The translations under genes were made by a program, and so were the position numbers. A stretch of DNA of 63,896 nucleotides, the filler included, from Corallochytrium limacisporum Hawaii (Eukaryota > Protista > Pluriformea), in NCBI GenBank assembly GCA_002811645.1. It is 6 parts of 6 records of this genome, joined end to end, with 100 filler letters (N's around TTAATTAATTAA, not from the genome) between each part and the next. Parts side by side here need not be neighbours in the genome. Positions count along the whole stretch, not along the records: positions 15,793 to 22,249 come from PDIP01000158.1; positions 22,350 to 45,393 come from PDIP01000058.1; 4 more parts are not named here. One strand, given 5' to 3'. The number at the start of each line of letters is the position of its first letter. The stretch's first letter is position 1. This document shows, piece by piece, positions 18,644 through 55,644 of the stretch. A model generated the notes under the pieces. It was not told the DNA's origin, searched no databases, and saw only the letters and a program-made list of their open reading frames with translations.

Positions 18644-21475
18644 TCACACCAGTGCGCTCGAGCTCTCCGGGACTCCCATGGACTCAATGTGCCTACTGAC
18701 TCCGGTGGAGCGGCGCCCATCACTACTGCTCGGGCTAGCGGTGAATGACTCTGAGCTTGCCGACTTCTTGTTGCGCTTCTTCACGTACACACCGGCGACT
18801 ACGGCAGCGATGACCACAGCACCACCACACGCAGCAACGGCCGCAATGGCAGCTGTGCTTAGGCCACCATCGGAACTACTAGAGCCCTCGGTGTCGCCGG
18901 TGTCGCCAGTATTCGACGGGGATTCAATTGGCAGGGAGTCGCTTTCCAGGGCGGAGTATTCGAGTGTGTAGCCAGCATCACCAACGGCCTCATTGGCGGC
19001 CAGACGATTGTACACCGCCTCAGTGTTGGTCTGGGCAGTGTCCGCGTCGCTTGCACCCATAAAGAATTCAGTTCGTACCTGGTTGAAGATTTCCTGCTGA
19101 GCAGCGACAGTGTTCTCATCATTATTAGAATTGGAGGCCGTAGCAGCAGTAATGATGACAGAAGAGGGGTCCTCGCCAGCCATTTCAAACATTTTCTGAA
19201 GCTCGTTGACCGCCGCGGACACTGCACCATCTTCAGTGGTTGAGAAGGATTTGGTCACCTTGATGGTGGACGCCGGACGTGGGTACTCGTCAGAGTTGGA
19301 CGCGGTAGTACAGGCGCCGGAGTTGCAATCAACAGAACGGCTGCGTTCCTCCACGCTGGGGCAGAGAGTTCCAAACACGGTTCCTTCCACCAAGATTTCT
19401 TGGGTTTCAATTTGTGTGCATTCCGTGGAGCAGATATCGGCGGGGATGTGATCACCGAGTACACACTCAACGGGACCGGGGCACGGCGCATCCTGACAAT
19501 TTTCGTAGTCAGAGCGCTCTTCGAGTGAGGGGCACTCGGCGCCACCATTAAGTGGCTCCTCTAGAATCTCCTTGACACGGGAGCGACGGCACGTTTCGGT
19601 GCAGTCACCCCACTCACCGTATTCCGTATCAACAACACAGTCCCGGGGACACAAGCCTTCACCGGCATCGCACTCACGGATCTGCTCGTAGTTGCCATCT
19701 TTGATCAGGGTAGCAGGGTCCACCTCGGTGTCGTCCTCGGCGGCGTCATCATTCTGGCGGCGGCGACGTCTCCGCTGGGCAGGAACGTCGTCATCCTGCT
19801 CCGGGCACTCTTCTCCGCCTTCGGTTGGTTCGCTTACGATTCTGCGGGTGCGAGAAGACGTACAGGTACTGTCGCACGCGGACCAGACGGACCACTCAGA
19901 CAGGACGCAATCGGCGGGACACAGACCTTGGCCAGCCTCGCAGACTTCCTCGCTGGTCTCTTCCAATTCCGGGCATTGTAGAGGTCCCTCGGGTTCCTGT
20001 GTGACGGTTCGATTGCGGATTCCGACGCACTGTTCGTTACATTCCCACTCGGACCATTCGGATACCTCGCAAGAACGGGGTTCACCGGAGCAAATGGCAC
20101 CAGAGCAACTGTCGCCCGCGCGTGCAAAGATCTTAAGCGAGCTCTGGGGGCTGATGTAGTACCAGCGGGTGAAATCCGGACCGTGCCAGTAGCTCTGGCT
20201 GGGCTCAGGAAGGGTGCCAGTGGCCAAAGGTAGGTAGTCAAGACCGGTGACTGGCACGAGGCACTCCTTTTCACGTGAGAAGATGTAGAATCCCTTGAAG
20301 CTCCCGTCAGCGTTATACTCCGTGGTAGCTCCAATACCGCAGTCAATACGCGCCTCCCGGCTGTAAAGGTTGTCGTCAATATAATAGTCGCCATAAGCGC
20401 CGATGGCGCACACGCAGGTTCCCTTGTTTTCTCCACCGGGGCATGTGCAGCCTCCTGGGGCAACAGGGAAGCTTGTGTCGGCTGCAAATGCATTCATGTT
20501 GGTGGTGAAACGACCGCCACCGCCCGTACAGAAGAAGCTTAACTGGGTGCACAGTTCGGAGCGGATCTCAGGGAACTTCTGCCAATTTACGACCTGGTTA
20601 AAATTATGGGTACGTCTGGCACCGGGCCAGTAAGGTCCCATGGCCCAGTCAGCCATATACAACACGGCGTAAATGGCAGCGCGCTTCCAGAAGCCCGCCT
20701 CAATGTGCAATGCCATGGCCATGGGACCACCAGTTGTCTTGTGATACCCCAGGACTGTCTTGCCCCCGCTGACGAGAATAGGAGTGTCCGCCGGGCCAGG
20801 AAATACCGGCTGGTTAGTCTGAACACCGGTCTCAGCAAAGTTATAGCCAACCCATTCATTGATGATCGTAGAGAAATTGTGGAGCTGTGGGGTTGAGACC
20901 ACAGCACCGGCCTCAGCACCGGACAGCCTACCGGCTGCCGTGGCGCCGTCAAAGTAGTCCAGGCTGTCAGGACTCATCCAGATGAGCTTAATCTTGTCAT
21001 TTCCGTACTTATTGATGTAGTCAAAAATAGCCTGAAATTCGTCCGGACGCATGATCTGGCGGAGAGCTCCAAACCCTTCCTGCTGACCGAAGAGGGTGGA
21101 CGTGATCACGATAACGCTGTAGCGGGCATGGCCATCGGAATTCTCAAGGTCAGTCGCAAAGTTAAAGTCAATAGAGGAGTACCAGGGAACAAAGCAGCAA
21201 GTGGGCTCCCCATACTGGTCGCCAATACTCTGGGCGGGGTCTTCGCGCTGAATGTACCGACGGTCGTCGTTGTATGTGTTCCGCTGCCCAATAACAGCCA
21301 CCTCGTAAGGGAAACCAGCCCACTCAAAAATAAACTGGATGGCTTCTGGCACTGGATAGTGCAAATACCTGTCGTTGGTCTTAGTGTCCTTTTTGATGAT
21401 CAGCGCACGAGAGTCAACGCCCATACCGAGGGCCATATTGACCATGGCGAAGAGGAGAACAAATGGGTAAATCAT
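18644..21475 (-). CDS. Type I membrane protein: signal peptide, Agd3 N-terminal (CBM87-like) region, Cys-rich region, four spondin-type TSP1 repeats, stalk, TM helix, short tail
   Basis: 943-aa ORF. Signal MIYPFVLLFAMVNMALG. N-terminal ALII..AGFPYEV..RYSVIVIT..DEFQAIFDYINKYG..KLIW and DWAMG..PGARR...NQV recall the Agd3 N-terminus. TSRs CEVSEWSEW, CVLSEWSVWSAC, CVV..YGEWGDC, CVLG. TM GLSTAAIAAVAACGGAVVIAAVVAGVYV followed by KKRNKK. Confidence 0.85.
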   Translation of the reverse strand: MIYPFVLLFAMVNMALGMGVDSRALIIKKDTKTNDRYLHYPVPEAIQFIFEWAGFPYEVAVIGQRNTYNDDRRYIQREDPAQSIGDQYGEPTCCFVPWYSSIDFNFATDLENSDGHARYSVIVITSTLFGQQEGFGALRQIMRPDEFQAIFDYINKYGNDKIKLIWMSPDSLDYFDGATAAGRLSGAEAGAVVSTPQLHNFSTIINEWVGYNFAETGVQTNQPVFPGPADTPILVSGGKTVLGYHKTTGGPMAMALHIEAGFWKRAAIYAVLYMADWAMGPYWPGARRTHNFNQVVNWQKFPEIRSELCTQLSFFCTGGGGRFTTNMNAFAADTSFPVAPGGCTCPGGENKGTCVCAIGAYGDYYIDDNLYSREARIDCGIGATTEYNADGSFKGFYIFSREKECLVPVTGLDYLPLATGTLPEPSQSYWHGPDFTRWYYISPQSSLKIFARAGDSCSGAICSGEPRSCEVSEWSEWECNEQCVGIRNRTVTQEPEGPLQCPELEETSEEVCEAGQGLCPADCVLSEWSVWSACDSTCTSSRTRRIVSEPTEGGEECPEQDDDVPAQRRRRRRQNDDAAEDDTEVDPATLIKDGNYEQIRECDAGEGLCPRDCVVDTEYGEWGDCTETCRRSRVKEILEEPLNGGAECPSLEERSDYENCQDAPCPGPVECVLGDHIPADICSTECTQIETQEILVEGTVFGTLCPSVEERSRSVDCNSGACTTASNSDEYPRPASTIKVTKSFSTTEDGAVSAAVNELQKMFEMAGEDPSSVIITAATASNSNNDENTVAAQQEIFNQVRTEFFMGASDADTAQTNTEAVYNRLAANEAVGDAGYTLEYSALESDSLPIESPSNTGDTGDTEGSSSSDGGLSTAAIAAVAACGGAVVIAAVVAGVYVKKRNKKSASSESFTASPSSSDGRRSTGVSRHIESMGVPESSSALV

Positions 21476-22349
21476 GTTGGCTGTGTTCTCTTGGTCTCCT
21501 GGAGAAAAGTTTTGCTTATGACTCGCAAGACCCGAAAAATCTGTGGAGCTTGCGTTGCGTGTGAACTCCTTCGGTTTGTATGAACAAGATGGACCTGGGC
21601 TGGAAGTGTTGAGACCTGCTCAAGCGATGTCCAGGATTCCTGTGTTTGTTCCTTGCTCCTGGGAGGCGAGGTCTCAGAGGGTTCTGAAAAGACGTACCCT
21701 TGCATCTTTATGCTACCCTCCACCACAAAGTTGAGGGATCCCTGAACTACCTTGTTGCAAGCGCACTGAGAAGATGAACTATACTTAGTCTGAGTCTGTG
21801 CTCTTGCTAACGCGGCAAACGCGACAGTGATAAACGATTGTCTGTCTTGCTTGAAGATCCGGCTACGCTGCGGGAGATAGACCAGGCTTTCCTCGAGAAG
21901 AATGTCCTCGCCTCTCTCCAGATCTTCAGCGCACACTAGGTGCTACCTCAAATGGTTGTACGCTTAGCCAAATTGCATCAGAGGACACTGAACAAAGTGT
22001 CTCGTACGCAATATGTTCTCCAGCCACCAGAGCGCTCTCAACTGGCTCGCGTGTAAGCTTGGCATATGCGCAAGAGGCCCCGAAGGAGAAACAAAGAAAA
22101 AAACCCTAACAAAACTGATAGTGGGGAGGTCGAAATGAGAAAGTAGGGGGAGAAAAACAAGAAAAAAAGGGGGAAGGGGGGAAAAGCAAGGAATTCTCCA
22201 AATTTCCGGAGCGAGAGATGCCCTCATCTCTGTTTCCCTCCCTCCCCCCNNNNNNNNNNNNNNNNNNNNNNNNNNNNNNNNNNNNNNNNNNNNTTAATTA
22301 ATTAANNNNNNNNNNNNNNNNNNNNNNNNNNNNNNNNNNNNNNNNNNNN

Positions 22350-24014
22350 GACAACTTCCCCCTCGCCCAGGCTGCGCAGTCCAGCAGCTGGAAGGAGGGA
22401 TTCAATTGGTTCAGCCATACCATGACCCACCCCAATATGGGAGTGCTCAGTGATTCTGACTCCGAGATCGAGATTCTGTACAACAAACACATTGCTGAGG
22501 ACGTACTTGGTCTGCGCGGCTACAGCACCTGGTCCCCCAATTCGGTCCTGTGCGGTCAATACTCCGGCATGATGAACGGGGACGTTTTGACAGCAATGGA
22601 CCGCGTGGGAATAACCAATGCGCTGACTGATAATGCCAACCCTGAGCATAGCTACACTGAAACCACTCGCGCTAACTATGAGCCCTGGATCACCACTGTT
22701 GAGACAAATGGCTATGCTGGCTTCACTCTCATCCCGCGACACCCCACTTTTATTGTCTGGTACGCGGCCACACCGGCTGAGAATCTAGATTTTTGGACCC
22801 AGTGGGGTTACCACTTCGATACTATTGAGGACCTCGTCCAGTATGACCTGGTAAACGTATTAGGCCCCCCCATCATGTCTCTACGGCAGGATCCCTTGAT
22901 GTATCACCAGGCGAACTTGTACACGAACAACATCTCTGGTAAGACGGCCAGTCTTGTGTCTTTCCACGTTGATGGACTGACTCAGGCAATCCATGAGTAT
23001 CTGACCCTGCCCATCCGCTCCTTCAAGCAGGACGACGTGGCCAAAATTTTCCGTCGACGGGCTGCTCTCAACAAGTGCACCCCAGAGGTCATTTTGCAGC
23101 GCGCCGATGACGGCACTATCAACTACGTCCGTGTTCGCACCAGGGCAGACTGTTACGTTCCCATTGAGGGCGTCACCCTACCCACCGCTGTAAATGACGC
23201 ATCAGCAAACGCTGTGCTCTCTGACGACGGTGAGCGGGTACTGATCAATGCCAGTGCGGGCGCAATCTACGAATATGGCTCTACCGAGGGCAGTTCCGGC
23301 GGTGGCGGAGACAACGGCAGCGGTGACGATGACGCCTGCTCTTACAACGAATGGACTTTCAGCCACACCGGCGAAGAGTGTTGGTTCCAGCCAGGCCGGA
23401 CTGACTGTGCCCAGTGCATTGAGGGCGGCTGTCAGTGCGGCGCGGAAAATCATCAAGTCTGCGTGCAGTGCGGTGACAGCGATGCGTGCGGTGTCGTCCA
23501 AGCGTGCATCCCTGACGGTGGCGACAATGGTGGCGACAATGGTGGTGATAACGGAGGCGACAACGGAGGCGGTGACGATGACAGCTGCTCTTACAACGAA
23601 TGGACTCTCAGTCACACCGGTGACGAATGTTGGTTCCAGCCAGGCCGGACTGACTGTGCCCAGTGCATTGAGGGCGGCTGTCAGTGCGGCGCGGAAAATC
23701 ATCAAGTCTGCGTGCAGTGCGGTGACAGCGATGCGTGCGGTGTCGTCCAAGCGTGCATCCCTGACGGTGGCGACAATGGTGGCGACAATGGTGGTGATAA
23801 CGGAGGCGACAACGGAGGTGGTGACGATGGTGGCTGTTCTCATAACGAATGGACCCTTAACCACACTGGTGACGAATGTTGGTTTGATAAGAATTCCAGT
23901 GACTGCGCCGTGTGCAAAGAGGGTGGCTGCCAGTGCGGCGATGACAACCGGCATGCCTGCGTTGAATGTGGAAATGGCGACGCCTGTGCCACTACAGTAG
24001 CTTGTATTCCGTAA
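22350..24014 (+). CDS. agd3: Agd3/CE18-like polysaccharide de-N-acetylase, copy A (5' part lost in gap), with three C-terminal 10-Cys modules
   Basis: Frame is open from the gap edge (DNFPLAQ...FNWFSHTMTH). Agd3-type motifs HTxTH, GMMNGD, TDN, GYAGFTLIPRHPT, LRQDPLMYHQANL. Close paralogue of copy B. Confidence 0.82.
   Translation, partial: DNFPLAQAAQSSSWKEGFNWFSHTMTHPNMGVLSDSDSEIEILYNKHIAEDVLGLRGYSTWSPNSVLCGQYSGMMNGDVLTAMDRVGITNALTDNANPEHSYTETTRANYEPWITTVETNGYAGFTLIPRHPTFIVWYAATPAENLDFWTQWGYHFDTIEDLVQYDLVNVLGPPIMSLRQDPLMYHQANLYTNNISGKTASLVSFHVDGLTQAIHEYLTLPIRSFKQDDVAKIFRRRAALNKCTPEVILQRADDGTINYVRVRTRADCYVPIEGVTLPTAVNDASANAVLSDDGERVLINASAGAIYEYGSTEGSSGGGGDNGSGDDDACSYNEWTFSHTGEECWFQPGRTDCAQCIEGGCQCGAENHQVCVQCGDSDACGVVQACIPDGGDNGGDNGGDNGGDNGGGDDDSCSYNEWTLSHTGDECWFQPGRTDCAQCIEGGCQCGAENHQVCVQCGDSDACGVVQACIPDGGDNGGDNGGDNGGDNGGGDDGGCSHNEWTLNHTGDECWFDKNSSDCAVCKEGGCQCGDDNRHACVECGNGDACATTVACIP
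23337..24011 (+). repeat. Three 249-nt coding repeats: 10-Cys module plus (GGDN)n linker
   Basis: Modules start at 23337, 23586 and 23835. The first two are almost identical in DNA. Confidence 0.93.
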
Positions 24015-26504: not shown

Positions 26505-29500
26505 ATGTATCGAAACCATTGCCGTGAGCGTCTCGTCGGCTTGATCGCTCTGTTGATGTTCACNNNNNNNNNNNNNNNNNNNNNNNNNNNNNNNNNNNNN
26601 NNNNNNNNNNNNNNNNNNNNNNNNNNNNNNNNNNNNNNNNNNNNNNNNNNNNNNNNNNNNNNNNNNNNNNNNNNNNNNNNNNNNNNNNNNNNNNNNNNNN
26701 NNNNNNNNNNNNNNNNNNNNNNNNNNNNNNNNNNNNNNNNNNNNNNNNNNNNNNNNNNNNNNNNNNNNNNNNNNNNNNNNNNNNNNNNNNNNNNNNNNNN
26801 NNNNNNNNNNNNNNNNNNNNNNNNNNNNNNNNNNNNNNNNNNNNNNNNNNNNNNNNNNNNNNNNNNNNNNNNNNNNNNNNNNNNNNNNNNNNNNNNNNNN
26901 NNNNNNNNNNNNNNNNNNNNNNNNNNNNNNNNNNNNNNNNNNNNNNNNNNNNNNNNNNNNNNNNNNNNNNNNNNNNNNNNNNNNNNNNNNNNNNNNNNNN
27001 NNNNNNNNNNNNNNNNNNNNNNNNNNNNNNNNNNNNNNNNNNNNNNNNNNNNNNNNNNNNNNNNNNNNNNNNNNNNNNNNNNNNNNNNNNNNNNNNNNNN
27101 NNNNNNNNNNNNNNNNNNNNNNNNNNNNNNNNNNNNNNNNNNNNNNNNNNNNNNNNNNNNNNNNNNNNNNNNNNNNNNNNNNNNNNNNNNNNNNNNNNNN
27201 NNNNNNNNNNNNNNNNNNNNNNNNNNNNNNNNNNNNNNNNNNNNNNNNNNNNNNNNNNNNNNNNNNNNNNNNNNNNNNNNNNNNNNNNNNNNNNNNNNNN
27301 NNNNNNNNNNNNNNNNNNNNNNNNNNNNNNNNNNNNNNNNNNNNNNNNNNNNNNNNNNNNNNNNNNNNNNNNNNNNNNNNNNNNNGGCCCTGCAATGGGT
27401 CACGCGCGGGTCGTTTGTGGGAACACGCCAGCTCAACGTGTCGCCACAGGTCGATGATTTCTTCCTCAATGACAACCCTGCGTATGTAGATCATGTCACT
27501 TGGCACCTAGAGTGGCAAAATTCTCACAATTCTGCCTACGGTGATGACATCAGGCTCGACATGGTGTTCAATGGCATGGGCATCACAGATGGTGGTATTG
27601 GCCGGCGCTTTGAGTGGGGTGATGAGTACGATTTGTACGCCAAGGATGTTGATGCATACTCATTGCCTGGTAGTAACAATGATAAGTACACCAGACCTTG
27701 GCCCGAGAACTGGTGGAATAACTCAAGTTTCTGGCAGAGCTGGGTGGACAACTTCCCCCTCGCCCAGGCTGCGCAGTCCAGCAGCTGGAAGGAGGGATTC
27801 AATTGGTTCAGCCATACCATGACCCATGCCAATATGGCGGCACTCAGTGTCTCTGACGCTGAGATAGAGATTCTGTATAACAAACACATTGCTGAGGACG
27901 TACTTGGTCTGCGCGGCTACAGCACCTGGTCCCCCCATTCGGTCCTGTGCGGCCAGTACTCCGGCATGCAGAATGGCGATGTCTTGATGGCAATGGACCG
28001 TCTGGGCGTAAATAATGCGCTCACCGACAACTCTAACTCTAATCACGGCTACACTGCAACAACACGGGCAAACTATGAACCCTGGTTCTCTACTGTTGAG
28101 ACTAATGGGTACGCTGGGCTTACTCTTGTCCCTCGACACGATACCTTTATTTGGTGGGACTCTGCCACGCCTGCTGAAAATGTCGCTGCTTGGAACCAGT
28201 GGGGTTACAACTTTGGTAGTATCGATGACATGGTGTACCATGACCTGGTGAATGTATTAGGACCATTGATTATGTCTCTGCGCCAGGAGCCGTTGATGTA
28301 TCACCAGGCTAATATGAATACCAACAGTATCAATGGTAAGACGGCCAGTCTTGTGTCTTATCACGTTGGTGGGCTAGCAGAGGGCATCCATGAGTATCTG
28401 ACCCTGCCCATCCACTCCTTTAAGCAGGACGATGTGGCTAATATTTTCCGTCGACGGGCTGCTCTCAACAATTGCAAACCTGAAGTGATCTTGCAACGCG
28501 CAGATGATGGCAATGTTATCTACGTCCGCGTCCGCACCAGAGCAACTTGCTACGTTCCTATTGAGGGCATCACCCTACCCGCTGCCGCAGATGACGGATC
28601 AGCGACTGCCGTGCTCACGAACGATGGTGAGCGGGTGTTGATCAGTGCCAGTGCTGGTGTGACCTACACATACGGCGCTATGGACGGTAGTTCCGGTGGT
28701 GGCGGTGACAACGGTGGCGGTGACAACGGTGGCGGTGATAACGGTGGCGATGATGGCGGCGGCTGTTCTTACAACGAATGGACTTTCAGTCACACTGGCG
28801 ACGAGTGTTGGTTCGAGTCAGGACGATATGACTGTGCCGTGTGTATGGAGGGTGGTTGCGGATGCGGCGCAGAAAATCATCAGGTTTGCGTCGAATGTGG
28901 TGATGTTGCTGCCTGCGGTGTTGTCCAAGCGTGTGTCCCTGGCGGAGGTGGCAATGACGGTGACAACGGAGGCGGTGATGGCGGTGATGGCGGTGATGGC
29001 GGTGATGGCGGTGATGGCGGTGATGGCGGTGATGGCGGTGACAACGGAGGCGGTGACGGTGGTGATGGCGGCGACAACGGCGACTGTTCGTACAACAAAT
29101 GGACTCTCAGCCACACTGGCGACGAATGCTGGTTCGAGTCGGGACGGGATGACTGTGCCCTATGCACAAGCGGTGGCTGCGGATGCGGAGCGGAAAACCA
29201 TCAGGTCTGCGTCGAATGTGGTGATGTTGCTGCCTGCGGTGTCGTCCAAGCATGTGTCCCTGGTGGCGGAGGTGACAATGGCGGCGACAATGGCGGCGAC
29301 AATGGAGGTGATAACGGCGGTGACAATGGCGGTGACAATGGAGGTGATAACGGCGGTGACAACGGAGGTGACAACGGAGGTGACAATGGCGGTGACAATG
29401 GCGGTGACAAGGGCGGTGACGGCGGCGACAACGGCGACTGTTCGTACAACGAATGGACTCTCAGCCACACTGGCGACGAATGCTGGTTCGAGTCGGGACG

Positions 29501-29897
29501 GTATGACTGCGCCCTATGCACATACGGAGGCTGCGGATGCGGCGCGGAAAACCATCAGGTCTGCGTCGAATGCGGTGATGTTGCTGCCTGCGGTGTCGTC
29601 CAAGCATGTGTCCCTGGCGGCGGAGGTGACAATGGCGGCGACAATGGCGGCGACAATGATAACGGCGATAATGGCGGTGACAACGGCAGCGACAACGGTG
29701 GCGGTGACAATGGCGACTGTTCGTACAACGAATGGACCCTGAGCCACACCGGCCACGAGTGTTGGTTCGACTCGGACTCAACCGACTGTGCTGTGTGCAA
29801 AGAGGGAGGCTGCCAATGTGGCGATGACAATCGACACACCTGCGTCCTTTGCGGAGATGGCGACGCCTGTGGCACCGTACTAGCCTGTGTACCGTAG
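26505..29897 (+). CDS. agd3: Secreted Agd3/CE18-like polysaccharide de-N-acetylase, copy B (internal gap 26564-27385), with four C-terminal 10-Cys modules
   Basis: Signal-like start MYRNHCRERLVGLIALLMF. After the gap: WVTRGSFVGTRQLNVSPQVDDFFL (Agd3 pattern WxTRG..G.R....Q[IV]DDxFL), FNG.G, FSHTMTH, GMQNGD, PRH, MYHQAN. The DD/HxxxH metal ligands and the catalytic His are all present. Joining across the gap is inferred. Confidence 0.85.
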   Translation: MYRNHCRERLVGLIALLMFXXXXXXXXXXXXXXXXXXXXXXXXXXXXXXXXXXXXXXXXXXXXXXXXXXXXXXXXXXXXXXXXXXXXXXXXXXXXXXXXXXXXXXXXXXXXXXXXXXXXXXXXXXXXXXXXXXXXXXXXXXXXXXXXXXXXXXXXXXXXXXXXXXXXXXXXXXXXXXXXXXXXXXXXXXXXXXXXXXXXXXXXXXXXXXXXXXXXXXXXXXXXXXXXXXXXXXXXXXXXXXXXXXXXXXXXXXXXXXXXXXXXXXXXXXXXXXXXXXXXXXXXXXXXXXXXXXXALQWVTRGSFVGTRQLNVSPQVDDFFLNDNPAYVDHVTWHLEWQNSHNSAYGDDIRLDMVFNGMGITDGGIGRRFEWGDEYDLYAKDVDAYSLPGSNNDKYTRPWPENWWNNSSFWQSWVDNFPLAQAAQSSSWKEGFNWFSHTMTHANMAALSVSDAEIEILYNKHIAEDVLGLRGYSTWSPHSVLCGQYSGMQNGDVLMAMDRLGVNNALTDNSNSNHGYTATTRANYEPWFSTVETNGYAGLTLVPRHDTFIWWDSATPAENVAAWNQWGYNFGSIDDMVYHDLVNVLGPLIMSLRQEPLMYHQANMNTNSINGKTASLVSYHVGGLAEGIHEYLTLPIHSFKQDDVANIFRRRAALNNCKPEVILQRADDGNVIYVRVRTRATCYVPIEGITLPAAADDGSATAVLTNDGERVLISASAGVTYTYGAMDGSSGGGGDNGGGDNGGGDNGGDDGGGCSYNEWTFSHTGDECWFESGRYDCAVCMEGGCGCGAENHQVCVECGDVAACGVVQACVPGGGGNDGDNGGGDGGDGGDGGDGGDGGDGGDGGDNGGGDGGDGGDNGDCSYNKWTLSHTGDECWFESGRDDCALCTSGGCGCGAENHQVCVECGDVAACGVVQACVPGGGGDNGGDNGGDNGGDNGGDNGGDNGGDNGGDNGGDNGGDNGGDNGGDKGGDGGDNGDCSYNEWTLSHTGDECWFESGRYDCALCTYGGCGCGAENHQVCVECGDVAACGVVQACVPGGGGDNGGDNGGDNDNGDNGGDNGSDNGGGDNGDCSYNEWTLSHTGHECWFDSDSTDCAVCKEGGCQCGDDNRHTCVLCGDGDACGTVLACVP
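28690..29894 (+). repeat. Four 10-Cys modules separated by variable (GGD)n 9-nt and (GGDN)n 12-nt minisatellite linkers
   Basis: Modules start at 28764, 29085, 29439 and 29718. ggcggtgat and ggcggtgacaat arrays lie between them. Confidence 0.93.
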
Positions 29898-32750
29898 GAC
29901 TCGGTTTGCTGCGCGAACGCCAGTCCCTTTCCATCGATCTCGAAAAACTGCATACGTCCCTTTCAACAGCAGCAGCCAATAAGGGGACCATTCAAACACA
30001 AAGGAGCCCATCTAACCACCGGCAACACTGATGAAGTCACTTAACGGACAAAGACTCCAAATGGAGTCAACCGCTTAATTGAACGCAATCTTGAAGGTGT
30101 CACTCAGAGTGAAAACGGATGAGGAGGCCAAAGGCACCAAATGCTTCAGAAAGGAAAAGGAATGGAAGAATATGCACACAACCAAAACGGTTTGTGTTCT
30201 TCCCTCAATCGCGCATCGTTCTCTCCCACATCGCCTCTGGGAAAACCCTTCCCCCCCCCCCCCCNNNNNNNNNNNNNNNNNNNNNNNNNNNNNNNNNNNN
30301 NNNNNNNNNNNNNNNNNNNNNNNNNNNNNNNNNNNNNNNNNNNNNNNNNNNNNNNNNNNNNNNNNNNNNNNNNNNNNNNNNNNNNNNNNNNNNNNNNNNN
30401 NNNNNNNNNNNNNNNNNNNNNNNNNNNNNNNNNNNNNNNNNNNNNNNNNNNNNNNNNNNNNNNNNNNNNNNNNNNNNNNNCCCCCCCACCCCCGGGTCCC
30501 CCTTCCGCGAGGGCAGTGGAGCGGCAAAGGCGGGTTTGGGCCTCCAAACGAAAAGGGGCCGCGGGCCCCGTAGCCAACTGGGAAATCTCTCTCTCTCTCT
30601 CGCTCTCTCGCTCTCCCTCTCCCCCCGGGGGGGGGGGAGGTGGGGGGTTCCAGAAAAGAAAGAAAAAGGGTGAAAGATTGGACACATTCCGCTTAAGCAG
30701 GCCCTGGCAAGGGAACAAAATAAAAAATGCAAAAAAAAAGATAAAAAAAAACCGGAAGAGAAAGGGACTCCCCCCGGCCCGCCGGGATAGAGAAAACCAC
30801 AAGGGAACTGCGGGCGAGTGAGAGAGCAGAGAGATTCTTCCAATCAAAGAAAAGCATCAAAATTAAAACAAAACAAAACAAAAAAAAAAGAGAAGAAAAG
30901 AGAAAACACGCAAAATACCCAAAACACCCTGCCTAATTCCTCCGCAACGGCAACTTTCTTTGGTTTGGTTCCCCGGGTACCGAGAAGCCCCGCCGGAGAG
31001 GGGTGGGGGTACCAGGCAGAGAGCGAGCGACAGGGAGAGAGAGAGGGGAGGGGGAGCGGGGGAGGGGGTGGCGGAAGCAGAGAGGGAAGCGGGGCCTGGT
31101 CAAGTTCGGCGGGTTTGACTTTGCAAAAGATTTTCTTCACCCCAAAGGGCAGCTCGGAAGTGGGGGCGCTATTGAAGGCCTGACATGTCTTTTGAGGTGA
31201 TGAACTACCTCGCAGTTGGTACAAAACAGCTGCCGGGAAACTGAAAGATTGGCGTTTGTGTTATTTCAGCAAAGGAAAAGATGTCTCTTTATGTTTAAGC
31301 ATTGATGGGTACTTTTGTGAGTGTGGTTTTGGACTTTGGGCAGCATCAGAACGTTCAACGGGATTCAACATCCAAATGTCGTTTTGATTGATGATGATGG
31401 CAATGAAATTTAGAATGGTTCAAAACGCATCTCTGCGTCACGATATCCAAAAAGAGGACGCCACCCTCGTCATCAAGAGCAGAGGATTAAAGAGCGATAC
31501 GGGGATAGGGAATTCTATGCGCAGGATGATGTGTCAAGGATGTCTTGTAGTGAATGAATATATAACTAACAAACTATCAGGATTATGAACAAGGAACGGA
31601 CAATGGACGTTTTAACTACGGACTGGCGAACAGACTTCCACTGTTTGTGCAAATTTACCATCGCGCGCGGAAAAGTGGCAACATCATCAACTACAGCAAA
31701 AACTGGTTGTCTCCCTGGTGTCCTATCATTCTTATCTCTTCTACGAACGTTAAAAACGGTTCATCAATCTACATCCACCCACGCATACTCATCTCTACAC
31801 ATTTCCGTGTCTCCCGCGCATCTGTCCACTCAATAGGGATTGGTGAGTCAATGTTCAATAGCTTGGTATGTACTTGTCCAGAGAGTTAGGATGTGATTAG
31901 AAAGGGCCTTGTAATACACTACAAACGTTGCTTGCAGTGACTCCATGTAACGCTGGTATCCCATGGCACATGTACAAGCATAGCCCGTCCGTACGCGGAA
32001 AAAGCCGGACACCACGACAACAACCATGCTCAGATAGGTGTTCGCATATCCGGTACGAAATTCACTGCTCACTGTCCTCAAGTTTGTTGGTCATGCGAGC
32101 GGATTTAGACCTCATCGCCTGGCCCGCTTTGAGTCCAATCAACGCAAAGCCTATTCATGAGGATCCTACACATTGTTGCAGCATCACAGCTGGGTTTTTC
32201 GAGGCCGTCCAAGCGCCGGTCAAACCCGACCAGAAGTGCGTCCTCCCGGGTCCCTGACGGGTCAGACTCTCCCCTAGCGAGTTTCCTTTCAATACATTTA
32301 GTATACTAAACCCGGCTTACGGCAGTCCGACCCCCCTCTACCCCTTTCCCCTCCTGTCCCCCCCCTCCTTCCCGCCCCCCTCTTCACTTCCGACTCTCAC
32401 CTAACCCCTAACCCCCCCAACCACGCCCCATTGGCAGTTAATTTGGGTAAGCACCCACCTTCGTCGACGACCTTTTCTGGAGCAGTAGGTAAAACTGCCT
32501 GATCGGGAGGGGGTCTGGCCGCCTTCCGCCCGAACCCTCCCCCCACCCCCCGGGCGGGCGCGAAAAGGGCAGAAAAAGGGGGGAGGGGGAAGGGGAAAGT
32601 GCGCAGCCACCCGCAGTGGGTTGTGAACTTCACGTCCGTACTACCACTTCGTTCCGGATAGTCGAGGGACAATTAAGCAAACCGCGTCGTTTGAACCAAT
32701 GAAGCAGCCACAGGACTTCAAAATTCTTTTCACTGCAATGGATGATCACA

Positions 32751-32758
32751 TATTTAAA
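32751..32758 (+). promoter_or_regulatory. TATA-like element upstream of the 32859 gene
   Basis: TATTTAAA about 100 nt before the ATG. TATTTAA also lies upstream of 40808 (at 40675) and 59041 (at 58934). Confidence 0.4.
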
Positions 32759-32858
32759 GGATTCGGGTATTTCGCATTGGCCATGAAAAGCATCCGGTAG
32801 ACCGCTGTTTGGGTTCGAAGAAGAAGATAATCACAAATACATACACACATTTACCGTC

Positions 32859-35423: not shown

Positions 35424-35871
35424 AACCACCGTAAAGAACAACCTGTCCAAGGATAAACCATTGCTAGTAACATGACAATATATTTTCAGAGGCATATCCC
35501 GTAATGTATTTGTGTTTTGTTTCGGCTGAGTCTACGTCGGGGATTGGGGCCACCGCGAAAGGTGCGGCACGGGGAGTCCAATATACACTCATTTAACTCT
35601 CACGTACCATTGACATGTCCTCGTGACCTTTCTTACAGGGTATACTGTGGTAGAGTTATTGAACTTGCATACTCTCGGATGTAGCTCATGCCCAAATCAA
35701 CCCATTTGGTTTTGGGGCCTTAAGCTCTGAAGTCTGCAGGACCATCAAGCCAACTCAAGAAGTTTGTTGTGATAAGGGTAGCCAACCTAAGAAACCCATG
35801 ATCTCCTGTGGTTTCCGAGTCGGTGACACCATGAATGTCGTCGATGTCGGCATCGGCGTCCGTTGAGGAGG

Positions 35872-36549
35872 TCAATAGTACCGAGGGGTTGAATGAGACG
35901 ACTCTTCAAAAGAAGGTGAGGATTTCTTGACATGCTCACGATTGATTGAAGACACCCGGGTGTCAGGGCCATGCTCACCGGTACAGCATGAAACGTAGCC
36001 TTGCTTGATCAAACACTTCAGACTCATGATACCAGCCAATGCCATGTACGCGGAAACGAAAATGTAGTAATAGAAGCCAACGTTGATGACATCTTGTACT
36101 TCATTCTCCGGGTAGTCCACTTTACCCAGCAAAACTGTTGCAGTGACGACACTAACGATGGCAAAGACGCTAGCATCCAAGCCCAGCAAATGAATGGGGG
36201 CACACCGTACCGATCCAATGAAGCACAAGAGGAGATAACCACCCATAAGACCAATAGCAAGGAATGAGGCGTACTCGGATCCTCGGAAAATGTCACACGA
36301 GTCTTTGTCGAGGAATGGCACTCTTTGTCCATCTAGATCGACCGTACAATCATTATGGAAGCTAAAAGTATCACTGTCGCACTGGTTTGAAGCATTACAG
36401 ACACTGAAATAGAGCCATCTGTAAGCCACAAGGAGCAGACCATCGTTGGTATTAACGGTAACGACGATCATAAAGGGGATCGCCTGGGGAAGGATCAGCA
36501 AGACCACAGATCCGCTCAGCAGACCCAGTAAATGCTTTTCGGTGAGCAT
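35872..36549 (-). CDS. Four-TM claudin/PMP22-like membrane protein
   Basis: Four hydrophobic segments. Large first loop with WLYFSVC...C...C...C. Tail CC motif. First ATG at 36549; TATAAAA on the minus strand at 36649-36655. Confidence 0.6.
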   Translation of the reverse strand: MLTEKHLLGLLSGSVVLLILPQAIPFMIVVTVNTNDGLLLVAYRWLYFSVCNASNQCDSDTFSFHNDCTVDLDGQRVPFLDKDSCDIFRGSEYASFLAIGLMGGYLLLCFIGSVRCAPIHLLGLDASVFAIVSVVTATVLLGKVDYPENEVQDVINVGFYYYIFVSAYMALAGIMSLKCLIKQGYVSCCTGEHGPDTRVSSINREHVKKSSPSFEESSHSTPRYY

Positions 36550-37798
36550 ATTGTCAAGTTTGGAAACGTTGCCAATCGGATGAATTTCGGGAGGATTCGA
36601 GCTCACGATTTCAGTCTAGAAGCCTTCTTGTGGCCAAGATGCAAAGTCTTTTATATGTGACCAACTGGCAAACAGAGAAATCTCGTCACAATATGGTATG
36701 CATCGTGCACCTTTGGTCCGGTTATCCTTCTTCTTTGTCGGGATTTCAGACCTAACCAGAACGGAGGCCAGTCAAATAACACAGCACTTCTAACCCTACT
36801 GATTCGACATGAAACGAAGACATTTGGCATCAGCTAAGCAACAAGGAAGTGTTCACGCGATTTGTGGACCATCTATTCTTCCCTTTTTTGGCCGGTCCAT
36901 TTCCTGTCGTGGCAGATGACGTGCAATGCGAATGACAAAAGAATATGACTCCAGCAAACCGCAGGTAGCCCCGATGACCGTTGGCAAAGTTCAGAAAGGA
37001 AACGGATATGGATGATGCCCGCTGATGACGGATTCATGACCGCTCTCTACGTAACTGTGGAACCGTCGATTTCCCCTCAATATCCCTCCCTCCCTTGGTG
37101 TGAGAGAAAACCAAGACTGAACAAGTGCTGTTGGAAACTTACGTCTTTACTGTGTTCCCCTTCATTTTTTCCCTTTTAGTTTCCTTGTGCTGGAAGTTTT
37201 GTTGATGATGGGGTGGGGTCGATGCTCGTCATTGGCCCCCCGCCTGCGCATCATCGTTGCGTAATGTGGTTCGGAGCGGCGCGTCAGGGAAAGCGACGGA
37301 GATGCGGTTGAGGGGGGCGGCAATCTGTGTCTTCGCTTTGGAGTGATCTGGTTGCTCTTCCGGACACGCATTCGAGTTTGCTCCTCCCATTCAGCAGAGA
37401 GGCAATGTCTTACACGAACCAGGAAGGAGCACAAGATTCATTGGGTGCTTCACCTGCCAAAGAAAGAGCAATGTCCTTCCAGGACGACCAAATGCCACCA
37501 AAGATCCTTACATGCTACACATACCAGCGGGACAGAAAATCATCAGAATAGCTGGTAAGTGCCCCCCCCCCAGGACACACAACAATGGGTCACATTTTCT
37601 TGCGCGCAAGATGTATGATCGAGCTCACTCAGACTCGCAAGGGAGAGGACAAATAGGCACGCATCTGATCCATACCTGATTAACCACGATTTATTTCAGA
37701 ATGCAAGTGAAGTTGTCCCCTGACGAGAGCTGGTGAACACGGAGATCCGATGGAACTTACTGTGCCACCGTACTTTGAGAGGTATCCAGCCAGCGCAG

Positions 37799-39712
37799 TT
37801 AACGCTGGGACTTTATTCTGTGCTTTAAGAATAGTTGGAAGTAGACAACTATGTTAGCTTGCTTAAATATTTTGCCCAGTGTTGTGAGGTCGCTGTCGCG
37901 TACAGTCGGGGCCTCTATATTGGCATGCATCTCGTCTGCCAAGAATTGCACTACCGTCTCATGGCAGTTCACTACGGCGAAATGCAGTGCAGTCCAACCG
38001 TCATTGTCTTTGGCATCAACATCGGCTGACATGCTCTCCGCAAAGTACCGCACCACCGTCTCATGGCCTCTCTGTGCCGCATAATGCAATGGGGTCTGAC
38101 CTTCTTCGTCCTTGACCTCAACATTGGCATGCATCTCCCCTGCCAAGAACTGCACTACCGTTTCATGGCCGTGCCGTGCGGCATAATGCAGTGGGGTCCG
38201 ACCAATCATGTCCTTGACCTCAACATTGACATGCATCTCGCCTACCAGCAATTGCACTACCGCCTCATGGCCGCCCTGCGCGGCCAAATGCAGTGGGGTT
38301 AGAGGATGCTGCGACACGGAATCCACGTTGCAATGCATATCCATTGCCAAGTACTGGACTAGTGTTTCATGTCCGGAAAATGCGGCATGGTGGAGTGGAG
38401 TTAACCCTTCTTTGTCCTTGGACTCAACATCGACAGACATCACCTCCACAAAGTACCGCACCAGCGTCAAATGGCCATACATTGCGGCCAAGTGCAGTGG
38501 GGTCATACCGCCTTTGTCCTTGGTCTCCACACTGGCACGCAACTCGTCTGCCAAATACCACACTATCGTCTCATGGCCTGTTATCACAGCATAGTGCAGC
38601 GGTGTCCTACCAATCGTGTTCATGGCCTCCACATTGGCATGCATCGCGCCCGTCAACAACTGCACTACCGTCTTTTGGCCGTACGCCGCGGCATAATGCA
38701 GTGGGGTCTCACCGTCTTTGCTCTTGGCCTCCACATTGGCGCACATCTCGCCTGCCAACACCTGCACTACCATCTCATGACCTTTTACTGCGGAATAAAA
38801 CAAAGGGGTCCGAGCCTCTTTGTCCTTGGCCTCCACATTGGCGCGCATCTCGCCTGCCAACAATTGCACTACCGTTGTTTGGCCGCACGCTGCGGCAGCG
38901 TGCAGTGGGGTCTGACCGTTTTTGTCCTTGGCCTCCACATTGGCATGCATTGCGCCTGCCAGCAACTGCACTACCGCCTCATGACCTTCAGCTGCGGCAT
39001 AGTGCAGTGGGGTCCGACTCTCATTGTCCTGGGCCTCCACATTGGCGCACATCTCGCCCGCCAACAACTGCACTACTATCTTATGACCCGGCTTTGCGGC
39101 AAAGTGCAGTGGGGTCCGACTATCTTTGTCCTTGGCCTCCACATTAGCATGCATCTTGCCTGCCAGCAACTGTACTATAGTCTCATGACCTTCAAGTGCA
39201 GCATGATACAGTGGGGTCCGACCCTTCATGTCCGTGGCCTCAACATTGACATGCATCTTGCCCGCCAACAACTGCACAACAGTCCCATGACCTTTCGCTG
39301 CGGCACAATGCAGTGGGGTCCAACCGTCCTTGTCCTTGGCCTCTACATTGGCATGCATCTTGCCCGCCAACAACTGCACTACCGTCTCATGCCCGTTCCG
39401 TGCGGCTATATGCAGCGGAGTACGATGCCGTTGAAAGCGGACATCCGTCCCGTAGGTTTGTGCAAGCATTTTCACGCCTGCCATGTCACCGCCTTTACAG
39501 GCCAATTCATACTCTTCCATATTCATTACGGTGTTCATCCACAGAGATGTCGTCTTCAAATCGTTTTCGAAACTCAAGCTAAGATTTCTGCGGGTCGGGG
39601 TTGTTGCGTGTTCAGAAAGATCTACTCTGCTGCCAGTCGCACGACACTCTTTTGGTTTGAAGCAACCGAGAAAAAACCGGGTGTCTTTCACCATGGCCTG
39701 TGTCAATTGCAT
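37799..39712 (-). CDS. Ankyrin-repeat protein with about 15 34-aa repeats
   Basis: 15 TPLH/TPLY-type units of the form G.TPLH.AA..GHE.VVQ.LAG.M.ANVEAKD, with a 102-nt DNA period. Start uncertain. Confidence 0.93.
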   Translation of the reverse strand: MQLTQAMVKDTRFFLGCFKPKECRATGSRVDLSEHATTPTRRNLSLSFENDLKTTSLWMNTVMNMEEYELACKGGDMAGVKMLAQTYGTDVRFQRHRTPLHIAARNGHETVVQLLAGKMHANVEAKDKDGWTPLHCAAAKGHGTVVQLLAGKMHVNVEATDMKGRTPLYHAALEGHETIVQLLAGKMHANVEAKDKDSRTPLHFAAKPGHKIVVQLLAGEMCANVEAQDNESRTPLHYAAAEGHEAVVQLLAGAMHANVEAKDKNGQTPLHAAAACGQTTVVQLLAGEMRANVEAKDKEARTPLFYSAVKGHEMVVQVLAGEMCANVEAKSKDGETPLHYAAAYGQKTVVQLLTGAMHANVEAMNTIGRTPLHYAVITGHETIVWYLADELRASVETKDKGGMTPLHLAAMYGHLTLVRYFVEVMSVDVESKDKEGLTPLHHAAFSGHETLVQYLAMDMHCNVDSVSQHPLTPLHLAAQGGHEAVVQLLVGEMHVNVEVKDMIGRTPLHYAARHGHETVVQFLAGEMHANVEVKDEEGQTPLHYAAQRGHETVVRYFAESMSADVDAKDNDGWTALHFAVVNCHETVVQFLADEMHANIEAPTVRDSDLTTLGKIFKQANIVVYFQLFLKHRIKSQR

Positions 39713-39847
39713 CGGAAAGCCATAACACGCATACCAGTCTCCTGTGAGAGTTTTCTGTACCCAATTTCAGAGCATTAAATACCAGTCCCTGAGTATATGG
39801 CAATGCAGTGCACAAAAGCAGTTGATCCGTAGCCTGTCCAAGCCAAA

Positions 39848-39964
<117 letters not shown>

Positions 39965-40807: not shown

Positions 40808-42553
40808 ATGAAGAGTTACCCAGTATGGACTGTCGTTCTTGAGGGCTTGACGCTCGCCTCTCTGACATATGCTGCCCCTCCTGCGCTTGACTGTGGTTAT
40901 GGTGATGTCCAGTCCAGCTACCCAACCCTCTATAAAGGTGGACAAAAAAACGAATCACCCAAATACGGCGGCACAAGTATTCGTGACCTCAGGGACTATC
41001 GAAACTGGGAAATTAACTATGGCGATTGGGTAGATCCATCCACATATGAGCCATGGAAACAATTTGATTTGGTGGTCCTGACCTGGAGCTTCTTCACTGG
41101 CACCGAGGAACAGATGCAACGCAGCCTAGAAGACCTGCAAGCCGGTGTGGATGGCAAACGTGGAACTTCTGATGATGTTGCTGTTATCGTGTACTTGTCA
41201 GTCTATGAAGAAGAAACCAAGCAGGACAAGATGAGCCCAAAGGCTCTCGAAGGCAAACTGTACGCTGGCGACGGCCGCGGTCCTGTTACCTTCGAAGACG
41301 GTGAGACGAAGTACCTGAACCAAGGTATTGCTGACTGGTACATGTCTACTGCCGGCAACTGCACTCTGGATGTTAATCCCTGGTGGGGAGCGTACTATGT
41401 AGATGCCAGGAGCAAGGATTGGCAGGATGTGGTAATGGATGAAGCAAGGCACTGGATCAAAGGCCTTGGGTTTGATGGTATTTTCTTCGATACGGTCGAT
41501 GATGCAGACCCATGGACAGGCAAGGGTTTCACTGCAGAGGGTGCCTCGGAATTGGTCTTAGCATTCAAGAATGAGTTTCCTGACTCCTTGCTTGCATGGA
41601 ATCGTGGTCTGTACTGGTTTGCGCCACATTTCTCCTACCATTACTCTTTCAATCCTATAAAACACCTGGATTTTGTTCTTTTTGAGTCATACTACCAGGA
41701 CGGTAATTATGAAGTCAATCCATGGTTGGCAGACAATCGAAACTTCTGGCTAGGCAAATTGCTGGCCGAAGCAGCACGCTCTGATAGCTATACAGTCCTT
41801 CTTGAGTTGTCGTACTGGGAAGATCTAGACAATGCTCCCAACACTCCCTCTTGGCCAGGCTACCTATCGGAGATAACAACATTCGGATTCTTGCCGTACA
41901 TAGCCGACAAGCATTTGCAAAAGAGCTCGAATGTTGCCGCACAAAGCATAGGCGAGGATGTTTCCGCTCCCGAATGGTTCTCCTCTGCAAATGGTTTTGT
42001 GTCGGAATGCAATGCAGCAGCTCTGTACTTCGACTACAAGGGTGACGGTGACGACACGGATCCGGGCTTTGGATCCCGCACGGGAGCTCAAGTAGCGTAT
42101 TCGGATCATAGTGGTATTGCTACTGTTGAATTTGACCTACCCGTAGACCAGACCCGGCCGCTGCGGTTCAACGCGTACGTGACCAAGAGTGGAAACGCGA
42201 TGGACTACGATGCAAAGGTCGTGAAAGCCCACGCGGCCACTACATACAAGGTCAACCCAGGGGAGGCTAACAAAGTGACCAAGGGGGAAAGTCTTCGATT
42301 GGCCGATATTGGCACCACCATTGGCCGTCACTATGAGGGGGTTGGATATCACTGCGGTGGCCGTGAGTGGCATACAGACACACACGTGTACCCGTTTCAG
42401 TTTAACCTCGAGGGACTCGAGCCTGGCACTTACGACATCACGATACGTGCTGAGGATTCCACGATCGGTGTAAAATATCCTCAGACTGGTAGGACAGGCC
42501 CGAGCGACGGTATTGAGGAAGAGAACGAAGTCATTGTCACTGTCACTGTTTAG
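40808..42553 (+). CDS. Secreted PelA-hydrolase/GH114-GH166-like glycoside hydrolase with FN3-like domain; paralogue of 32859-35423 without Cys modules
   Basis: Signal-like MKSYPVWTVVLEGLTLASLTYA. WEINY, VIVYLSVYE, WWGAYYVDARSKDWQ, GFDGIFFDTVD, WNRG, FVLFES, PVDQTRPLRFNAY, IRAED, GIEEENEV, collinear with the 854-aa protein. Confidence 0.82.
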   Translation: MKSYPVWTVVLEGLTLASLTYAAPPALDCGYGDVQSSYPTLYKGGQKNESPKYGGTSIRDLRDYRNWEINYGDWVDPSTYEPWKQFDLVVLTWSFFTGTEEQMQRSLEDLQAGVDGKRGTSDDVAVIVYLSVYEEETKQDKMSPKALEGKLYAGDGRGPVTFEDGETKYLNQGIADWYMSTAGNCTLDVNPWWGAYYVDARSKDWQDVVMDEARHWIKGLGFDGIFFDTVDDADPWTGKGFTAEGASELVLAFKNEFPDSLLAWNRGLYWFAPHFSYHYSFNPIKHLDFVLFESYYQDGNYEVNPWLADNRNFWLGKLLAEAARSDSYTVLLELSYWEDLDNAPNTPSWPGYLSEITTFGFLPYIADKHLQKSSNVAAQSIGEDVSAPEWFSSANGFVSECNAAALYFDYKGDGDDTDPGFGSRTGAQVAYSDHSGIATVEFDLPVDQTRPLRFNAYVTKSGNAMDYDAKVVKAHAATTYKVNPGEANKVTKGESLRLADIGTTIGRHYEGVGYHCGGREWHTDTHVYPFQFNLEGLEPGTYDITIRAEDSTIGVKYPQTGRTGPSDGIEEENEVIVTVTV

Positions 42554-55500: not shown

Positions 55501-55644
55501 GACCATGATGAGACAGACACAGAGAACGGTTAGAGCGCTGCGAAAGGTATTTATTGAAAACGGAGAGTAAACAAAGATCAAGGCGGCTGCTCATGACCTA
55601 GAAGCCTAAATACATTGTTCGTGCACCACAAAAAAGAAGTTAAC

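Follow-up and report, generated by a model that had tools for sequence, protein, structure and literature searches.

Within a 63,896-nt stretch of Corallochytrium limacisporum DNA (hereafter the window; six records joined end to end), we found that five genes in the study region, positions 18644–42553, encode two CE18 (Agd3-type) deacetylases, two TIM-barrel glycoside hydrolases (GHs; here labelled GH1 and GH2) and one surface protein. The surface protein is a derivative of Agd3 that has lost the catalytic domain and kept both non-catalytic domains, and this barrel-less CBM87–TSP1 membrane protein is the most distinctive element of the locus. The locus itself is neither a galactosaminogalactan (GAG) cluster nor a pel cluster; it is a non-random local group within dispersed gene families. 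The reading that we favour, at somewhat less than even confidence, is that the five genes belong to a toolkit spread across the genome, with which the organism modifies, trims and binds its own coat of the alpha-1,4-galactosamine/N-acetylgalactosamine (GalN/GalNAc) type, and we infer an alpha-1,4-GalNAc/GalN-type surface polymer as its substrate.

A barrel-less Agd3 derivative and two CE18 deacetylases

The surface protein has the following parts.

18644..21475, minus strand: surface protein, 943 amino acids, with signal peptide, CBM87-type domain, insert, Agd3 C-terminal beta domain, TSP1 repeats and transmembrane helix
20621..21424, minus strand: CBM87-type domain, about residues 18–285; W263 aligned with Agd3 W344
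20372..20608, minus strand: insert of about 80 residues in place of the barrel, reading QVVN against the family's QVDD
Residues 369–456, minus strand: Agd3 C-terminal beta domain (profile match)
Residues 870–888, minus strand: transmembrane helix (hydropathy), followed by a short tail

An earlier note on this DNA had claimed an Agd3-type N-terminal region for this protein. That region is present, but the claim understated the case, as the Agd3 C-terminal domain is present too and the barrel is lacking. Against a profile of 93 Agd3 relatives, the protein scored 49.6 bits (best of 500 shuffles, 0.8; reversed sequence, −1.8). The match falls into two parts, at profile positions 78–262 (residues 105–290) and 564–637 (residues 369–456), and it ends at the QVDD/QVVN site; the roughly 300 positions of the catalytic barrel (262–564) are absent, and the catalytic motifs CM1–CM4 are all lacking. 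Pfam TSP1_spondin matched three stretches; the protein has three TSP1 repeats plus one degenerate copy. In a structural model, which was built from the Agd3 alignment and is thus not independent of the profile match, the protein superposed on Agd3 (6NWZ) with a Z score of 22.6 and an rmsd (root-mean-square deviation) of 2.9 over 288 aligned residues spanning chain positions 143–805. 6NWZ was the sole Foldseek match under 1e-3, and the next structural match was NDST1 (Z 12.6). The model contains the CBM87 fold (Agd3 141–364), and the insert has a predicted local distance difference test (pLDDT) score under 50. W344, retained here as W263, is described in the accessible text of PMC7229062 as the most important Agd3 residue for GAG binding. 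The protein likely binds sugar at the membrane.

The barrel deletion is not an assembly error, because one 3031-base contig from a second sample (run X5) runs gap-free across the whole gene and departs from the window at 17 sites; the coding differences number 16, of which 5 are silent and 11 change an amino acid. Sequencing runs such as X1, X3 and X5 were used as contigs, X3 and X5 being guessed to be RNA. Contigs of two runs guessed to be RNA cover the surface gene end to end, and none of the runs on record as RNA contains the stretch. Single-sequence search of the PDB with the surface protein gave two weak unrelated matches only, and a search for homologues of near-equal length returned only the protein itself. 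In the ESM Atlas, its N terminus met unnamed or DUF clusters only, which is not evidence of novelty. The barrel-less CBM87–TSP1–transmembrane form was found neither among the 150 best CE18 relatives, which were selected by the barrel, nor in the literature searched.

The two deacetylases are laid out as follows.

22350–24014, plus strand: Agd3-a, 3′ part of a CE18 deacetylase, 5′ part missing; CM2, CM3, CM4, C-terminal domain and three Cys modules
26505..29897, plus strand: Agd3-b, CE18 deacetylase with its 5′ part in the gap 26564–27385; CM1–CM4 and four Cys modules
27387–29897, plus strand: Agd3-b beyond the gap, matching Pfam PF25115
27447–27458, plus strand: catalytic motif CM1 (QVDD) of Agd3-b

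Consistent with the earlier claim of two Agd3-like deacetylases, DEACETYLASES (Agd3-a and Agd3-b) each matched Pfam Agd3_CE PF25115 at 142 bits (cut-off 27.6; E 2.6e-41 for Agd3-a). Agd3-b carries all four motifs, CM1 (DD), CM2 (HxxxH), CM3 (R) and CM4 (MxH); CM2–CM4 are present in Agd3-a, in which CM1 would fall in the missing 5′ part. The only match of Agd3-b in the PDB at E≤1 was Agd3 6NWZ (E 3.8e-24, aligned over 427 residues), and in this alignment (offset 122) it retains the equivalents of D377, D378, H510, H514, R613, M666 and H668, the roles of which are given in the accessible text of PMC7229062. Both enzymes are predicted from these matches to remove N-acetyl groups from an alpha-1,4-GalNAc-type polymer.

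In both deacetylases, the place where an N-terminal CBM87 domain would be expected falls in assembly gaps. For Agd3-b, the gap measures 550 bases in contigs, which fits about 180 amino acids, against 822 in the window. With a gap of 550 bases, the reading frame that opens at ATG 26505 misses that of the barrel by one base, which would be explained by a start inside the gap or by a frameshift; the start codon is therefore uncertain. Agd3-a starts mid-barrel, its sequence matching 27747 onward. A second copy of the Agd3-b 5′ region is shown by a loose end ahead of 26456 and by roughly twofold depth on the contig crossing the Agd3-b gap, so Agd3-a is probably complete in the genome. For the loose-end contig sequences, no match was found in the window or among the named paralogues, so that the Clim proteins are only presumed to come from the same genome. 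An X3 contig has a variant segment after 27476, with 48 differences from the window (those listed lie within 27478–27662), which suggests that parts of the Agd3-a and Agd3-b copies were swapped in assembly.

A profile scan found 412 CE18 relatives among 1.84 billion representatives. The named closest relatives of Agd3-b are Corallochytrium (Clim_) proteins at 36–52% identity, and seven named Clim CE18 paralogues carry scaffold numbers 215, 46, 72, 50, 7, 251 and 149, the names being taken by us to give gene and scaffold. The best-scoring named matches outside Clim are chytrid proteins; two chytrid proteins of 1926 and 2398 amino acids (P0015 and P0016) hold 3–4 tandem Agd3 units. FastTree analysis of 82 of about 150 matches, with P0011 dropped, placed Agd3-a and Agd3-b as sisters in a lineage-specific clade of six (support 100); no sister group of this clade was resolved in that tree, and no donor is claimed. 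A C-terminal hydrophobic membrane anchor is present in five of the six paralogous CE18s tested and in none of Agd3-a, Agd3-b, GH1 and GH2.

The main text of PMC7229062, in its accessible parts, discusses Agd3 homologues in fungi and bacteria only. Its supplementary table, dating from 2020, has at least 11 ichthyosporean, at least 18 Viridiplantae (green-plant lineage) and at least 5 stramenopile rows, and Corallochytrium is not among the Agd3 rows found there. The earlier statement that such a system is undescribed outside fungi and bacteria is thus weakened by tabulated homologues in ichthyosporeans, algae and stramenopiles, but our search, which left subscription papers mostly outside, found no paper that connects GAG, CE18 or hydrolases of this type with Corallochytrium or any other holozoan. 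In the accessible text of PMC13345962, the words deacetylase and galactosaminogalactan do not occur; its supplements may list these families.

One module of 57 residues with ten cysteines is common to both enzyme classes, as the earlier note had reported, with ten copies in the window and none in GH2.

23337–23507, 23586–23756, 23835–24005, plus strand: three Cys modules of Agd3-a
28764–28934, 29085–29255, 29439–29609, 29718–29888, plus strand: four Cys modules of Agd3-b
32928–33095, 33258–33422, 33555–33719, plus strand: three Cys modules of GH1

The module also occurs in P0003, P0004, P0011 and P0014, and it joins CE18 and GH paralogues elsewhere too (P0003, P0011 and P0014). It matched nothing in Pfam or in the ESM Atlas, the latter not being evidence of novelty. 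Because the copies are tandem and separated by linkers, the module may have a binding role.

Two TIM-barrel hydrolases and their bacterial relatives

The two hydrolase genes lie downstream of Agd3-b.

32859–35423, plus strand: GH1, 854 amino acids; signal peptide, three Cys modules, TIM barrel (D498, E563, W463) and C-terminal beta domain
40808–42553, plus strand: GH2, 581 amino acids; TIM barrel (D228, E293, W193) and C-terminal beta domain, no Cys module

GH1 and GH2 are 42% identical, and GH2 shares 44–54% identity with its named Clim relatives; two further Clim GH paralogues carry scaffold numbers 198 and 97. GH2 scored below the cut-offs of Pfam GH114 PF03537 (23.3 bits; cut-off 27) and TIGR01370 (TM1410 family, GH191; 24.8; cut-off 181.25), GH1 matched neither, and a single-sequence PDB search with GH2 gave no matches. 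The five best structural matches of the GH2 model were all of the alpha-1,4-galactosaminidase type, namely GH191 (Z 16.5 and 16.1), PelA (16.1 and 15.8) and GH114 (15.6), at rmsd 3.4–3.7 over 215–251 aligned residues; Ega3 ranked tenth (Z 14.5). These results bear out the earlier description of two paralogous TIM-barrel glycosidases with PelA/GH114-type motifs. With regard to unrelated families as best matches, galactosaminidases came top, but GH66 and GH168 followed within about one Z unit.

On the TIM barrel, both proteins have a beta4 Asp, a beta6 Glu and a beta3-insert Trp, which fits the GH114/GH166/GH191 group. In this pair, just as in Ega3 and in the two GH191s, the Trp lies 35 residues ahead of the Asp; the Asp–Glu spacing is 65 (58–69 in Ega3 and the GH191s), and these positions agree with those given for Ega3 and the GH191 enzymes in the accessible text of PMC12054363. 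This residue set leaves the substrate unfixed, because GH66 has the same features. Each protein ends in a beta domain of about 150 residues that matched no deacetylase profile, unlike the PelA fusion. GH1 and GH2 are probably an unclassified subfamily within the GH114/GH166/GH191 group, and from modelling they are predicted to cut partly deacetylated alpha-1,4-GalN/GalNAc chains.

For phylogeny, we fetched 80 bacterial genome loci with GH relatives and built a quick tree of 79 rows and a careful tree of 26 chosen rows. In the careful tree, the five eukaryotic GH proteins grouped together (100/100), and their sister group (99/98) consisted of five bacterial proteins, including those of the Fibrobacterota loci L004 and L005. 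At both of these loci, the GH gene directly follows pelF–pelG, downstream of a PelB-type gene; both have a PelB domain, and the L005 operon also has a PelD domain. Locus L003 adjoins a betaine transporter, and L020, in the same clade in the quick tree, is at a contig edge. The hydrolases were probably gained from bacteria, to judge from these trees. Of the 80 genome loci, 21 had pelF no more than 10 kb away, and these 21 represent six or more phyla; pelG was as close in 10 and an Agd3-like open reading frame (ORF) in none. Metagenome contigs yielded 58 GH loci, all distant (22–42% identity), seven of them with pelF within the same distance, and viral contigs yielded none. A distinct observation concerns a GH subfamily that is unclassified and carries an fn3-like domain at the C terminus (L004:9884-12184, L005:9581-12205, L035:6180-7943, L014 and L027). 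In Fibrobacterota, Geobacter and clostridia, it is located inside pel operons or close to them; those of its members that were scanned reached no Pfam or NCBIfam cut-off.

The careful tree grouped GH1 with a diatom-library protein and GH2 with P0002. The two genes are therefore not a recent tandem pair, as they belong to different sub-lineages. The closest GH1 relative (100/100), P0004 (P0161, P0162) from the Chaetoceros debilis transcriptome, has two Cys modules, and the Chaetoceros debilis-library protein is also on two 2.6-kb JGI contigs. It may reflect either transfer or an unrecognised co-cultured eukaryote.

Gene group, assembly and neighbouring genes

The GAG-cluster definition in the accessible text of PMC4817252 requires a linked glycosyltransferase and epimerase; the locus is not a GAG cluster because both are absent from the window, nor is it a pel cluster. 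None of the 54 window ORFs scanned belongs to the GT4, epimerase or Sph3 families by Pfam. With tblastn, for which the glycosyltransferase query was bacterial PelF and not Gtb3 itself, PelF, PelG and epimerase had no match below E 0.1 in the window (best epimerase, E 0.18). The earlier observation that Gtb3/PelF, Uge3 and Sph3 are missing from the window is thus upheld, but its use as a sign of degradation carries little weight, as only the window was searched and five of six paralogous deacetylases tested are membrane-anchored. The locus sits within two larger families, whose further members, seven CE18-like genes and two GH genes, bear nine different Clim scaffold numbers. In a rough simulation (8 and 3 loci among 7535 genes, criterion chosen post hoc), 2.2% of trials put a GH locus no more than three genes from a CE18 locus. 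The proposed GAG/Pel-type cluster therefore stands as to its families and their link to Pel/GAG chemistry, but not as a cluster by definition; two apparently unrelated genes (the four-segment membrane protein and the ankyrin gene) separate GH1 from GH2, and paralogues are dispersed.

The remaining features of the group and its joins are these.

Starts 15693, 22250, 45394, 49039 and 60647: five identical artificial spacers of 100 bases, N44-TTAATTAATTAA-N44, a stop-codon linker
22250..22349, no strand: spacer between the surface gene and Agd3-a, covering the promoter and about 1 kb of the Agd3-a 5′ part
35872..36549, minus strand: intervening gene, 225 amino acids, four hydrophobic segments, no family (Pfam, hydropathy)
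37799..39712, minus strand: intervening ankyrin-repeat gene (Pfam)

Genes on either side of the five spacers need not be neighbours. No contig bridges 22250–22349, the longest X1 contig stopping 15 bases beyond 22249, so the surface gene and Agd3-a are only presumed to adjoin; 22350–45393 contains no such spacer. Long contigs span 30652–33284 and 34220–39800. Agd3-a is uncovered by contigs, and Agd3-b and GH1 are uncovered in X5, which is not informative on expression.

The window holds about 15 single-ORF eukaryotic genes, including those for an RRM protein, a tRNA methyltransferase, an F-box protein, a mitochondrial carrier and an ABC transporter. Nine single-ORF translations are letter-for-letter identical to protein-collection entries (seven shown as EukProt); these nine gene models, about 15.7 kb of coding sequence in all, are therefore free of introns. 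For C. limacisporum, the accessible text of PMC5560861 gives an intron density of 0.0 per kb (0.7 per kb in Chromosphaera), a size of 24.1 Mb and a count of 7535 genes, and its two strains are described as almost identical in that of 10.1101/2020.11.12.379420. The intron-poor, non-fungal host proposed earlier agrees with the intronless enzyme genes and with closest named matches to Clim_ proteins, and on these two grounds a fungal source is rejected. The window is very probably C. limacisporum itself, which would make the Clim matches paralogues.

Several neighbours were also observed. A plus-strand gene at 17009–18220, tail to tail with the surface gene and covered by contigs of both X3 and X5, encodes 403 amino acids with an N-terminal hydrophobic segment and no family. 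On the minus strand, 500 bases beyond GH2, 43062–44597 encodes a 511-amino-acid protein with a Ser/Thr-rich stretch as in aerolysin-family pore formers; its sole PDB match is the natterin-like protein 4ZNO (E 0.001), and it matched nothing in Pfam or NCBIfam. Beyond another spacer, 46156–48471 (minus strand) encodes a 771-amino-acid type II membrane protein with a weak MptE-like match (19.9 bits; cut-off 34.6); it is not PelF-like, and it could be a glycosyltransferase-like Golgi protein. About 11 kb at 52600–63896 has no Pfam or Rfam match in a window that is gene-dense elsewhere (the Rfam scan of the window gave no match), and a 109-base repeat at 95% identity occurs at 1–109 and 49202–49310, the second copy adjoining a spacer.

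Readings of the locus and known systems

We favour a role at the organism's own surface because five of the six paralogous CE18s tested have C-terminal anchors, because the binder, a membrane protein of type I, is covered end to end by contigs guessed to be RNA, and because the Cys module joins CE18 and GH paralogues elsewhere. Agd3-a and Agd3-b would deacetylate the polymer in a metal-dependent manner (D-H-H triad), making it cationic and sticky; GH1 and GH2 would make retaining endo-cuts with the beta4 Asp and beta6 Glu, for trimming or for cell release at division. The barrel-less Agd3 derivative would hold the polymer at the membrane, the ten-cysteine modules would tether both enzyme types to one wall layer, and the synthase would be unlinked, elsewhere in the genome. 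What is observed comprises the genes with their domains, catalytic residues that are intact, a surface protein that has lost the barrel, and the pel context of bacterial relatives of the hydrolases. The deacetylase family may be older than the hydrolase acquisition, because relatives occur in ichthyosporeans, chytrids and algae.

A number of results weigh against the own-coat reading. In the surface protein, Agd3 W292 aligns with F in a low-confidence stretch, D242 aligns with W at a position variable in the family, and Pfam PF25116 (CBM87) is not matched at E≤0.01, as is likewise true of six named paralogues with intact N termini; its gene shows no sign of strong constraint, because 11 of the 16 coding differences are non-silent. 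The identity of the CE18 proteins to Agd3 is low. For the hydrolases, the GH2 model is mediocre (mean pLDDT 60.5), GH66 (Z 15.3) and GH168 (Z 15.1) are near-ties with the galactosaminidases, Foldseek ranked GH168 first, and the only PDB matches of the GH profile under E 0.01 were cycloisomaltooligosaccharide glucanotransferases, which share the Trp. Pel linkage holds for two of four loci in the sister bacterial clade and only 5 of 35 in the wider close clade. The window lacks a synthase and an epimerase. In addition, C. limacisporum is described in the accessible text of PMC6492006 as a chitin-walled saprotroph, making chitin an alternative substrate, and CE18-like architecture acts on heparan sulfate in NDST1 (PMC10864358, accessible text).

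The main rival, possible but rather doubtful as we judge it, is that a saprotroph uses these genes as a feeding or colonising kit to bind, deacetylate and digest bacterial or fungal biofilm of the Pel/GAG type. Tandem modules are a layout typical of enzymes for insoluble polymers, and three of the four enzymes have them; none of the four has a C-terminal anchor, the window has no synthase, and 30 of the 35 close bacterial GH loci lie outside pel operons. Ega3 favours deacetylated polymer, so a deacetylase would aid digestion, and the organism is a marine osmotrophic saprotroph (PMC6492006, accessible text). However, most other CE18 paralogues tested carry anchors, and multi-copy Agd3 homologues also occur in photosynthetic algae, which are not biofilm feeders.

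It seems unlikely that each enzyme class has a polymer of its own, such as chitin or some other GlcNAc glycan for CE18 and alpha-glucan or fucan for the hydrolases, with the grouping left by old duplications and the Cys module serving as a general wall anchor. The GH66 and GH168 near-ties, the action of the CE18 architecture on GlcNAc in NDST1, the nine paralogues under other scaffold numbers and the two unrelated genes inside the group would fit this. By contrast, the simulated GH–CE18 proximity is infrequent (with its small, post hoc basis), GH1 and GH2 come from different sub-lineages, and both bacteria and fungi have agd3 together with GH114 genes. That the locus is in part an assembly product, with the surface gene not beside Agd3-a and the Agd3-a/b parts swapped or one frameshifted, is very improbable: the unbridged spacer, the X3 variant contig and the 550-base gap that puts ATG 26505 out of frame point that way, but a random join would hardly place an Agd3 derivative beside Agd3 genes, 22350–45393 has no spacer and long contigs cover two of its stretches.

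To return to an own coat, a bolder version, which we judge possible but rather doubtful, is that a holozoan makes a cationic alpha-1,4-galactosamine coat with an unrecognised synthase, that an expanded CE18 family and Pel-operon-derived hydrolases edit it, and that one deacetylase turned adhesin by deletion of its barrel and gain of TSP1 repeats and a membrane anchor. If true, GAG/Pel-type adhesion would have arisen by a third route, out of the enzyme architecture on which animal NDST is likewise built. Research on GAG and Pel treats them as biofilm polymers of fungi and bacteria; a holozoan processing kit would carry their chemistry over to the opisthokonts' animal side and bear on wall composition, and the locus hints at a fungus- or bacterium-like sticky coat in a unicellular marine relative of animals. 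The barrel-less protein offers a clear example of an enzyme that has apparently become a surface binder, the ten-cysteine module is a candidate new carbohydrate-binding module, and the hydrolase subfamily could add to anti-biofilm enzymes. Because Corallochytrium grows axenically and can be stably transfected (10.1101/2020.11.12.379420, accessible text), the question is directly testable.

Similar to the Aspergillus GAG cluster (uge3–sph3–ega3–agd3–gtb3), the locus has a CE18 deacetylase near a GH114-like hydrolase, with four motifs in Agd3-b; it differs in the lack of Gtb3, Uge3 and Sph3 in the window, in its duplicated enzymes and Cys modules, in hydrolases nearer to bacterial proteins than to Ega3 and in many paralogues under other scaffold numbers. 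The Pel system (PelA, GH166 plus deacetylase; pelA–G) shares the hydrolase fold (5TSY, Z 16.1) and includes operons that hold the bacterial relatives, whereas here the hydrolase and the deacetylase each have their own gene, the latter enzyme belongs to CE18 and the window has no PelB–G. The GH191/GH114 endo-alpha-1,4-galactosaminidases have the same TIM barrel, beta4 Asp, beta6 Glu and Trp 35 before the Asp, but GH1 and GH2 are only 14–16% identical to them, fall below the Pfam GH114 and TIGR01370 cut-offs and have the extra C-terminal beta domain. The surface protein resembles the CBM87 domain of Agd3 in predicted fold and in the W344 equivalent; unlike Agd3, it has no catalytic barrel and is fused to TSP1 repeats and a transmembrane helix. 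Human NDST1 (heparan sulfate N-deacetylase) is a Golgi enzyme that acts on GlcNAc, has a sulfotransferase domain and gave no Agd3-b match at E≤1, but it is the second structural match of the surface-protein model, and its likeness to Agd3 is published (PMC10864358, accessible text).

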